From the NCBI GenBank assembly GCA_964016885.1, contig OZ024748.1:4278001-4342000 (forward strand): a DNA stretch of 64,000 nt, written 5' to 3'. The notes below the pieces were generated by a model. It searched no databases, was not told where the DNA came from, and worked only from the letters and a program-made list of their open reading frames with translations. Source of the DNA: Eledone cirrhosa. Taxonomy: Eukaryota. The position numbers and the translations under genes were made by a program. Shown one piece after another: positions 14,859 through 58,822 of the stretch (position 1 is the first letter of the stretch; each line of letters starts with the position of its first letter).

Positions 14859-14900
14859 TTTTGCTGATGAATGAGATAACATGTTGAAATGTGTTCAAAA
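14859..14900 (+). ncRNA. Decayed minimal type-I hammerhead
   Basis: TTTTG-CTGATGA-(15 nt)-GAAA-TGTG-TT-CAAAA. Helix I is 5 bp. GAAATGTGTT is the CpG-decay product of GAAACGCGTT. Helix II is weak. Confidence 0.4.
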
Positions 14901-27215: not shown

Positions 27216-27528
27216 TATATATATATATGAATATATATATGAATATATATACATATATATGAATATATATATATATGAATATATATGTATATATCTATAT
27301 ATATATATGCGTGTGCATGTTTGTGTGTGTGCGTGTATGTGTGTATGTATGTGAGTGTGTGTGTGGTGTGTGTGTGTATATACACACATTCACACACTGA
27401 CACACACATATATAATGTGTTGTTGTCGTTTTTGTAGGCGCTGTCCATTGTGATTCATTTATTTTTTTTTAATATTCCTCATCCATTTTCCTGATATTCA
27501 TATTCATATATATATATATATATATATA

Positions 27529-28107
<579 letters not shown>

Positions 28108-28143
28108 TATATATATATATAGAAAGATACATAGATAGATAGC

Positions 28144-28475: not shown

Positions 28476-28678
28476 TATTAAAATAACAGATTAAAGTTTA
28501 AGTAAAGAACTTCTGAAACTGGTTTCAGAAGATCCCGTTAAGGGTGAAAGCAGTGATTCTTTGCTTAAACTTTAACCTGTTATTTTAATAAATATTTGCT
28601 CTACGGTTCTTATATATCTGATATATATTTATTCTTATCGAGCCCTCTTTGGATTTTAGTCTTCAAATTTATTATTAT

Positions 28679-28682
<4 letters not shown>
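28476..28682. mobile_element. Family B fold-back element, opposite orientation
   Basis: Centre TTCTGAAACTGGTTTCAGAA. Ends with the reverse complement of the family 5' end (CCCTCTTTGGATTTTAGTCTTCAAATTTATTATTATTAC). Confidence 0.8.
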
Positions 28683-28744
<62 letters not shown>

Positions 28745-33870: not shown

Positions 33871-34074
33871 GTAATAATAATAAATTTGAAGACTAAAATC
33901 CAAAGAGGGCTTCACGAACCAAAGTACCGTCTTCCTGTCTTCCTCCGGTTGCAACGTTTTTTGAAATATCCACTTCTGCGTTCACAGATTGACTTTGTTA
34001 GTTTCAGAAGATCCCGTTAAGGGTGAAAGCAGCGATTCTTTGCTTAAACTTTAATCTGTTATTTTAATAAATAT
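33871..34074 (+). mobile_element. Family B element, collinear copy without fold-back
   Basis: Family 5' end, unique middle, complete HHR-like fold and AATAAA, lying between TA tracts. Confidence 0.8.
33984..34059 (+). ncRNA. Type-I hammerhead fold with variant core CAGAAGA (family B)
   Basis: Distal helix I ACAGATTGA/TTAATCTGT, 7-nt bulge, proximal helix I AGTTT/AAACT, CAGAAGA, T-CCC-GTTAA-GGG-T, GAAA, helix III AGCAG/TTGCT, predicted site CUU at 34043-34045. Confidence 0.6.
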
Positions 34075-34175
34075 ATACATATATATAAATATATACATAA
34101 ATGTATATATATATTATATATATATATATATATACGAATATGTATATATATATATATGTATGTGTATATATATTA

Positions 34176-41183: not shown

Positions 41184-41421
41184 TATTAAAATAACAGATT
41201 AAAGTTTAAGCAAAGAATCGTTGCTTTCACCCTTAACGAGGTCTTCTGAAACTGAAAAGATCCCGTTAAAGGTGAAAGCAGTGATTCTTTGCTTAAACTT
41301 TAATCTATTATTTTAATAAATATTTGGTCTACGGTTTTTATATATTTATATATATTTATATATATATTATCCTTATCAAGACCCCTTCGGATTTTAGTCT
41401 TCACATATATTATTATTACTA
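41184..41421. mobile_element. Family B fold-back element
   Basis: Palindrome centred near 41250, then the reverse complement of the family 5' end. Confidence 0.8.
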
Positions 41422-41427
41422 CATAGA

Positions 41428-52297: not shown

Positions 52298-52382
52298 CAT
52301 GTCTCCCTATTTTATCTGACGAAAACGCAAATGTTATTGCATGATGATATTTGTTTTTGAAATGCGCATAATAAAATACATG
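52298..52382 (+). ncRNA. Canonical type-I hammerhead ribozyme (family E)
   Basis: Helix I TATTTTAT (52308-15) / ATAAAATA (52371-78) plus distal CATG/CATG, CTGACGA (52316-22), a ~15-bp helix II, GAAA (52359-62), palindromic ATGCGCAT, and predicted cleavage after AUA at 52370. Confidence 0.8.
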
Positions 52383-58634: not shown

Positions 58635-58822
58635 TAGAAATAGAAGCTTTTGCCGTATTTCTTGACTAAAGAAATTTTAGCCTGATAGTCGGGTTTAGAA
58701 CCCTCTAAGAAATGGAAAAAGATGAGTATTGACGCGTGAATACTCATCTTTTTCCATTCTAAACCTCACTATCAGGCTAAAATTTCTTTAGTCAAGAAAT
58801 ACGGCGAAAGCTTCTATTTCTA
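58635..58822. mobile_element. Family D fold-back element
   Basis: Nested inverted arms centred on GACGCGTG (58731-58738). A second copy at 58906-59055 starts CGTCAATACTC. Confidence 0.75.

Follow-up and report, generated by a model that had tools for sequence, protein, structure and literature searches.

A fixed A4 core in a putative hammerhead of a Hydra-clade Penelope-like retroelement from Eledone

The motif and its host element

The window analyzed is a 64-kb stretch of Eledone cirrhosa DNA (source genome 3.0 Gb), and its positions 33984–34059 (+) allow a type I hammerhead (HHR) to be drawn. The motif lies in a truncated copy of a retroelement. A piece of the long 3′ tail of the element, in inverted orientation (33871–33911, −), adjoins the (TA)n target and is fused to the 5′ end of this copy; it matches tails at 28641–28686, 27524–27569, and 41378–41424, and the tail is also found in full-length copies. 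It is followed by terminal repeat (pLTR) exon sequence (33913–33983, +), which follows the 3′ splice site of the intron where copies are longer and which is 97–100% identical in 40 scored genomic copies.

The 5′ side of helix I (33984–34004, +) consists of a distal strand (33984–33992), a 7-nt bulge (33993–33999), and a proximal strand (34000–34004). Its 3′ side (34046–34059, +) completes the distal helix (9 bp with one G·U, 33984–33992/34051–34059) and the proximal helix (34000–34004/34046–34050), and holds U1.7 (34052), which may form a Hoogsteen pair with the final A of loop II. The core, C3–A9 (34005–34011, +), reads CAGAAGA, with a derived A at position 4 (34006) and a free N7 (34009). 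The next segment (34012–34027, +) contains U10.1·U11.1 (34012/34024), a 3-bp helix II (CCC/GGG), loop II with a conserved final A (34020), and G12–A14, with GAAA at 34025–34028 (+). Helix III and the predicted cut site occupy 34028–34045 (+): 34028–34032 pairs with 34040–34044 (4–5 bp, 7–9-nt non-palindromic loop), and cleavage is predicted after U17 (34045) in the triplet CUU (34043–34045). The short-class 3′ end of the insertion (34060–34075, +) runs into (TA)n. Compared with the consensus CUGANGA...GAAA...NUH, 10 of 11 fixed bases were matched, U4 being replaced by A.

As the earlier note had reported, the CAGAAGA core recurs in the window at 27687, 28041, and 28526 (+) and at 41248 (−); all five cores were recovered by a relaxed type I hammerhead finder. 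The full helix I is present in the window only in the 33984 copy, the others being fold-back fragments with the junction in or just before helix I. Fold-back copies of the family are located at 27528–27770 (cores at 27687 (+) and 27683 (−)) and 27925–28110 (28041 (+) and 28037 (−)), a truncated copy with the long tail at 28476–28682 (+; core at 28526), and a more diverged fold-back copy at 41186–41424 (core at 41248 (−)). The sequence of the window copies identifies them as truncated and fold-back pieces of a Penelope-like element (PLE) with a 709-aa open reading frame.

Other structures were also observed in the window. A type I hammerhead of canonical form, with CUGACGA, a helix I of 7 bp, a palindromic helix III, and a GAAA...AUA site, lies at 52305–52375 (+) and is followed by a tail into (TA)n; it probably belongs to another PLE family and serves as an in-window canonical control. 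The same finder returned a weaker CUGAUGA hammerhead-like match at 14859–14900 (+), which may be a chance match or a decayed copy. An inverted repeat at 58635–58822 (arms of ~45 bp), which scored below the gathering cut-off of a plant miRNA model, is probably another fold-back element. The neighbouring repeats presumably resemble octopus SINEs.

The host element and an ancestral U4 subfamily, neither of them named in the earlier note, were both identified. The 709-aa reading frame, reached from the flanks of related copies, is intact. The search with its protein gave 65,442 first-look candidates, and the 150 that were scored were all 98–100% identical to the query; relatives of the protein are 38–56% identical. 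Reverse transcriptase (RT) and, at the C terminus, a GIY-YIG endonuclease are encoded in the single frame (RDDG at 347, Y-x12-YIG at 585–600). The RWK motif is present as RWR at 37 (K to R), DKG is changed to DKT at 115, the CxCX5C linker reads CNCRNRADC (564), CxxC reads CDLC (662), and CxH reads CKH (690). For the GxKF/Y motif, no G-x-K/R-F/Y match was found in the 709-aa protein, and CCHH is absent from it, going by where Cys and His lie rather than by aligning it with canonical PLEs. A Pfam search of the 709-aa protein gave no match; its relative P0102 (41% identical) has GIY-YIG. The set RWR/DKT/RDDG/CxCX5C/Y-x12-YIG/CxxC/CxH is given as diagnostic for the Hydra clade in the passages of Craig 2021 (PMC8557442). 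Membership in Naiad was ruled out because the endonuclease is C-terminal.

The arrangement pLTR–ORF–pLTR was found in 4 of 12 loci picked for long open frames (L082, L084, L088, and L089), with CAGAAGA in both repeats, and fold-backs (inverted truncated arms), pLTRs, and insertion into (TA)n are all present in the family. By protein motifs and element structure, rather than by position in an RT tree, the motif is assigned as the terminal-repeat hammerhead of an autonomous Hydra-clade PLE. The pLTR carries a GT–AG intron of 749 nt, ending 102 nt before the core (C3; L082). Copies terminate in (TA)n at two sites. Of 86 copies, 43 have the short end, ~62–70 nt after C3, and 37 the long one, about 153 nt after it; six end elsewhere. 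It was also observed that the intron had been precisely removed at six loci (L002, L004, L007, L069, L074, and L078), compared with 51 having an unspliced donor, and that the two 3′ end classes delimit a tail (L082:3106–3260) of ~85–90 nt, longer than the 30–40 nt usual for PLEs.

Position 4 in the family and in its ancestor

Exact-flank matches across the genome had A at position 4 in 14,825 cases and C, G, or T in 134, with no control matches; these counts are lower bounds, and one element may count twice. Among 100 listed of the 134 non-A matches, the bases were G (38), T (36), and C (26), as mutation after insertion would be expected to produce. A4 was found in 48/48 young copies and in 27/27 copies of each of two older groups defined by their flanks. 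The genome-wide numbers thus uphold the view that A4 belongs to the family at large and did not come from decay of one copy, and the A-versus-T check proposed with it found that most copies are not CTGAAGA, T4 falling within the few non-A matches. In contigs of four DNA runs, no difference at position 4 was present among the differences listed; the cross-species evidence leaves out runs of two organisms (1 and 8 contigs, low depth).

Two candidate sets of U4 copies were rejected. An apparent U4 subfamily (1,360 CTGAnGA matches to a looser pattern) was not borne out: at 24 of 30 loci read, position 4 is the centre of a fold-back junction. There, TTC-A-GAA reads CTG on its opposite strand, so that fold-backs yield a canonical-looking CUGAAGA and mislead motif-based counts. 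The second set, 143 U4 matches in which the helix I strand is intact, consisted mostly of young-type point mutants at the 30 loci read. As separate observations, fold-back junctions often centre on the core micro-palindrome TTC-A-GAA (window 27614–27770 and 27968–28110; L093–L122), and on an inverted arm at L081:4566–4604 a 19-nt helix I–core–helix II segment is tripled in tandem, which suggests polymerase slippage at the core.

Older copies were chosen by an upstream motif outside the core (90 of 119), and 11 that had lost the 3′ part of the motif were dropped. Of the remaining 79, 73 had A at position 4, two T, one G, one C, and two a gap; position 7 was A54/T22/G3. The two T4 copies have a common, distinct upstream sequence. 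A search by that sequence alone gave 16 matches, of which 10 form an ancient group with the motif kept; the other six were one A4-subfamily copy, one core-deleted copy, and four ending before the core. Position 4 in the ancient group was T in seven, C in two, and A in one (n = 10, read by eye; in the alignment one of the Ts is wrongly placed as a G). With the two copies that had led to the group left out, T was found in 5/8 (p ≈ 8e-5 under an A4 master). Median divergence from the column majority was 19% in the ancient group, 12–13% in the older A4 groups, and 1.4% in young copies. The ancient U4 group already had U·U, CCC/GGG, the long helix III, and CUU.

The core of all 25 published Hydra families is CUGA (Craig 2021 File S2, PMC8557442). 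Metagenome relatives were represented by 78 loci, the best kept of 478; 28 of the 78 had no match, and the 50 sense-strand motifs gave 47 distinct ones. U4 was found in 46 of these, C4 in one, and A4 in none, the finder being one that penalises core mismatches (the A4 motif scored 9.0 at a threshold of 8) and could miss weak A4 motifs. Since U4 is found both in the ancient subfamily and in 46/47 motifs of relatives, U4A is, on this comparison, the derived state. It may speculatively have arisen by inversion of the 3-nt loop in the TTC-N-GAA micro-palindrome, a frequent fold-back centre; a point mutation is equally possible. One metagenome locus (L176:2667) has a low-scoring C4 hammerhead-like motif (CCGAAGA) upstream of a Hydra-like ORF.

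Conservation, folding, and cleavage

Subfamily groups were defined by the upstream flank only, and column majorities were compared between young (20 aligned of 48) and old A4 (27) copies. Differences were found in 0/12 core columns, 1/43 helix columns, and 10/23 columns of loops, bulge, and N7 (p = 8e-6 overall), the single helix column being an extra U in a U-run. Helices differed from the free positions at p = 5e-5. The values for the core only, which come from one pair of subfamilies, are modest: p = 0.014 without position 4 (0/11), and p = 0.03 for the unpaired catalytic positions (G5, A6, G8, A9, and G12–A14; 0/9). In the flank, 40/73 columns differed; this comparison is partly circular because the groups were defined on the flank, and the loops were used instead. 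At N7, one subfamily has U and the others have A, while A4 is constant; loop II reads GUUAA, GUAUA, GCUUA, GUAAUA, or GCUUUA, and the 5′ bulge varies in sequence and length. Free positions that vary beside a core and helices that stay are, judged from these columns, the pattern of continued selection on a hammerhead. A4 is a single column, and the pattern says nothing on A4 itself. No compensatory base-pair change was found between subfamilies, all paired columns being the same in the subfamily majorities (no covariation signal either way), so the conservation could be of a sequence read by a protein.

The hammerhead fold was computed at −13.0 kcal/mol, 2.1 kcal/mol above the MFE (−15.1). Pair probabilities were 0.05–0.08 (~0.07) for proximal helix I and 0.72–1.0 for distal helix I. 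The folding z-score of the 78-nt stretch was −0.71, no better than shuffles, and in a 261-nt context the pair probabilities of all hammerhead helices were at most 0.04. With each base tried at position 4, the hammerhead energy was unchanged and proximal helix I probabilities were similarly low (0.03–0.11); in silico folding is thus uninformative on A4. The earlier statement that all helices form holds to the extent that the pairings of three helices in type I order can be drawn and are conserved; it goes too far for the fold itself, which is not the MFE and is not favoured thermodynamically. In Rfam searches, no hammerhead family was found among three weak matches for 33880–34075 at E up to 10, and the 150 matches listed of 475 for the whole window were microsatellite-driven miRNA matches only.

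The lack of covariation, the unfavoured fold, and the position of the motif (~100 nt from the 3′ splice site, with the start codon 200 nt downstream of the motif) would all suit a relic or another constraint, such as a DNA promoter, a splicing or other signal, or descent from a few master lineages, with the hammerhead shape being irrelevant. This is very improbable: the changes hit exactly the positions that a hammerhead leaves free (N7, loops II and III, and the bulge), and both strands of all helices were spared (1/43 vs 10/23, p = 5e-5).

The U·U pair at 10.1–11.1, singled out earlier as an oddity, is present and typical of the clade: it was found in 14/25 Hydra families (Craig 2021 File S2, PMC8557442) and 20/47 metagenome motifs, and passages of Perreault 2011 (PMC3088659) describe it as a known active natural variant and the best-tolerated mismatch. 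The CUU site, also pointed out before, is indeed unusual: C15.2 is found in 25/25 published Hydra families (same source) and 47/47 metagenome motifs, which makes CUU clade-atypical, though it predates U4A. Helix III is longer than the near-palindromic helix III of 8–10 nt seen in 44/47 motifs of relatives, all with C15.2 and GUH. A separate repeat family of this genome (L123:4520–4560 and L124–L126) was observed to carry a compact hammerhead with U4, U·U, a GAAA-capped helix II, a 2-bp helix III, and CUU; three of its copies are spaced about 4.2 kb apart, and no ORF similar to the 709-aa one was found in the fetched flanks.

Rescue of the core by contacts between loop II (GUUAA) and the helix I bulge (CUUUGUU), as had been suggested, is unlikely because the bulge sequence is not conserved between subfamilies. 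The last A of loop II was kept in 75/79 and U1.7 in 71/78 older copies, and a contact between these two would fit better. A conserved A·U Hoogsteen contact is known from hammerheads (PMC2553840, PMC9217987).

Copies extended past the predicted cut site in 85 of 86 cases, which implies that templates are uncut at the 3′ motif. At the 5′ end, 287 junctions were at the cut site and 472 at a control position 4 nt downstream; there is no pile-up at the cut site and thus no genomic sign of cleavage making template 5′ ends. For the PAc PLE, Frangieh 2024 (PMC11167929) reports that the hammerhead cleaves only with protein, that mainly uncut RNA serves as template, and that insertion persists in catalytic mutants, without reduction in vitro. 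Low activity and a need for dimers are described for PLE hammerheads by Cervera and de la Peña 2014 (PMC4209133). A natural U4C variant retains enough activity in vivo according to Perreault 2011 (PMC3088659), while in a type III hammerhead every single or double CUGA mutant was low, a C3/G8 swap being the sole rescue (Roberts 2023, PMC9901934). From the latter, A4 should cut the rate strongly, yet the catalytic positions stayed fixed.

In its geometry the motif, with a proximal helix I of 5 bp, U1.7, and a loop II ending in A, is like type I hammerheads stabilised by tertiary contacts, and passages of Perreault 2011 (PMC3088659) argue that distal contacts offset core variants. The loop II A·U1.7 contact and the long helix I might therefore compensate for A4 and permit near-normal cleavage in the cell. 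Such full activity is improbable: three suboptimal features (A4, U·U, and CUU) are combined, the copies come from uncut RNA, and the tertiary-stabilised hammerhead of the mutagenesis study was intolerant of CUGA changes (PMC9901934).

A catalytically dead fold, in which U4A ended cleavage long ago and the junction and core bases were kept as a structure bound by the element protein for template choice or for setting the RT start immediately 3′ of it, is possible but less probable than not. It would agree with the low and mostly unrescuable activity of CUGA mutants, the undiminished PAc insertion, and the 5′ ends without pile-up, as well as with the short 3′ end class ~10 nt after distal helix I and with Naiad PLEs, which thrive without canonical hammerheads (PMC8557442). 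Against it, the unpaired catalytic positions remained unchanged while loops and N7 changed (0/9 vs 10/23), and core constancy exceeds what shape alone needs, unless a protein reads the folded core. The earlier note's choice between a working variant and a dead fold was the right one; its dead fold, taken as purely a matter of shape, explains the fixed unpaired core poorly.

The motif is most readily understood as an attenuated, slow, probably protein-assisted self-cleaving hammerhead, a predicted activity to which a probability of about one half is assigned. Helix III would have the length to fold in the absence of a second RNA, whereas the short palindromic version in relatives presumably depends on dimers. 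A4 would weaken the uridine turn and replace the need for dimers as a brake. Most transcripts would then stay uncut, which would suit reverse transcription: RT start 3′ of the cut site and copying through it mean that uncut RNA is needed. Occasional cleavage, aided by the element protein and the loop II A·U1.7 contact, would hold the catalytic bases under selection. Fixation of A4, U4 ancestry, the constancy of core and helices, the uncut copies, and the PAc and U4C precedents speak for an attenuated hammerhead; the poor activity of CUGA mutants, the 5′ ends without pile-up, the absence of compensatory change, and a fold that is not the MFE speak against it. The long helix III also predates A4, so that the U4 ancestor must have managed for some time without the A4 brake. 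It is a tentative and rather unlikely extension that the A4 hammerhead is competent in its natural RNP and that U4A was selected as a brake replacing dimer control once helix III had become self-sufficient, aiding expansion to more than ten thousand copies.

Known hammerheads and significance

The Hydra-clade hammerheads of Craig 2021 (PMC8557442) are likewise type I, on the sense strand, in the pLTR, and with a short helix II; they often share U10.1·U11.1 and U17 (10/25), and their elements have (TA)n targets and the same protein motifs. All 25 families have U4, C15.2, and a short near-palindromic helix III, whereas the Eledone family has A4, G15.2–C16.2 (CUU), and a longer non-palindromic helix III. 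The Hydra-1_Obim motif published there differs in sequence from the Eledone motif. Minimal PLE hammerheads (PMC4209133) and PAc (PMC11167929), as described in these sources, resemble the Eledone family in pLTR location, a nearby retained intron, the copying of uncut RNA, the low intrinsic activity expected, and two 3′ end classes that define a tail. They differ in keeping the CUGA core (or U3–A8 covariation), in having no stable helix III, and in a tail of 30–40 nt, compared with ~85–90 nt here.

Natural core variants named in passages of Perreault 2011 (PMC3088659) are U4C in a viroid, A6C in phage Bcep176, U3–A8, U15.1–A16.1, and U10.1·U11.1; U4A is not named in those passages. As in Eledone, these are single departures at an otherwise invariant core base for which low activity is expected. 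They are isolated variants, whereas the Eledone U4A is fixed in a very high-copy family with the U4 ancestor readable in the same genome. Literature searches gave no paper with a hammerhead U4A, and nothing relevant for CAGAAGA (among the matches listed) or for CAGAUGA/CAGANGA; the searches covered papers rather than repeat libraries such as Repbase and Dfam, and a prior mention is possible. For octopus, Penelope, and ribozyme, Craig 2021 (PMC8557442) was the sole relevant match among those listed, and the passages of PMC11014351 and PMC12192606 hold nothing on position 4.

On this comparison of sequences, the motif is a descendant of a Hydra-clade PLE hammerhead and is predicted to work like one, yet its core is not canonical. 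The role of hammerheads in PLEs is called unclear in Craig 2021 (PMC8557442), and an element with ~15,000 matching stretches provides a natural test of it: a lineage changed an invariant core base, continued to amplify, and retained all other positions specific to hammerheads, its U4 ancestor being present in the same genome. A4 and U4 RNAs, compared with and without the element protein, would separate the case in which cleavage matters from that in which only the fold matters. If the motif does not cleave, it would be a ribozyme turned protein-binding structure, with a transition that can be dated. If it does, the accepted core rule would be too strict and CUGANGA-based searches would miss whole families, which may bear on the PLE clades reported to be without hammerheads.
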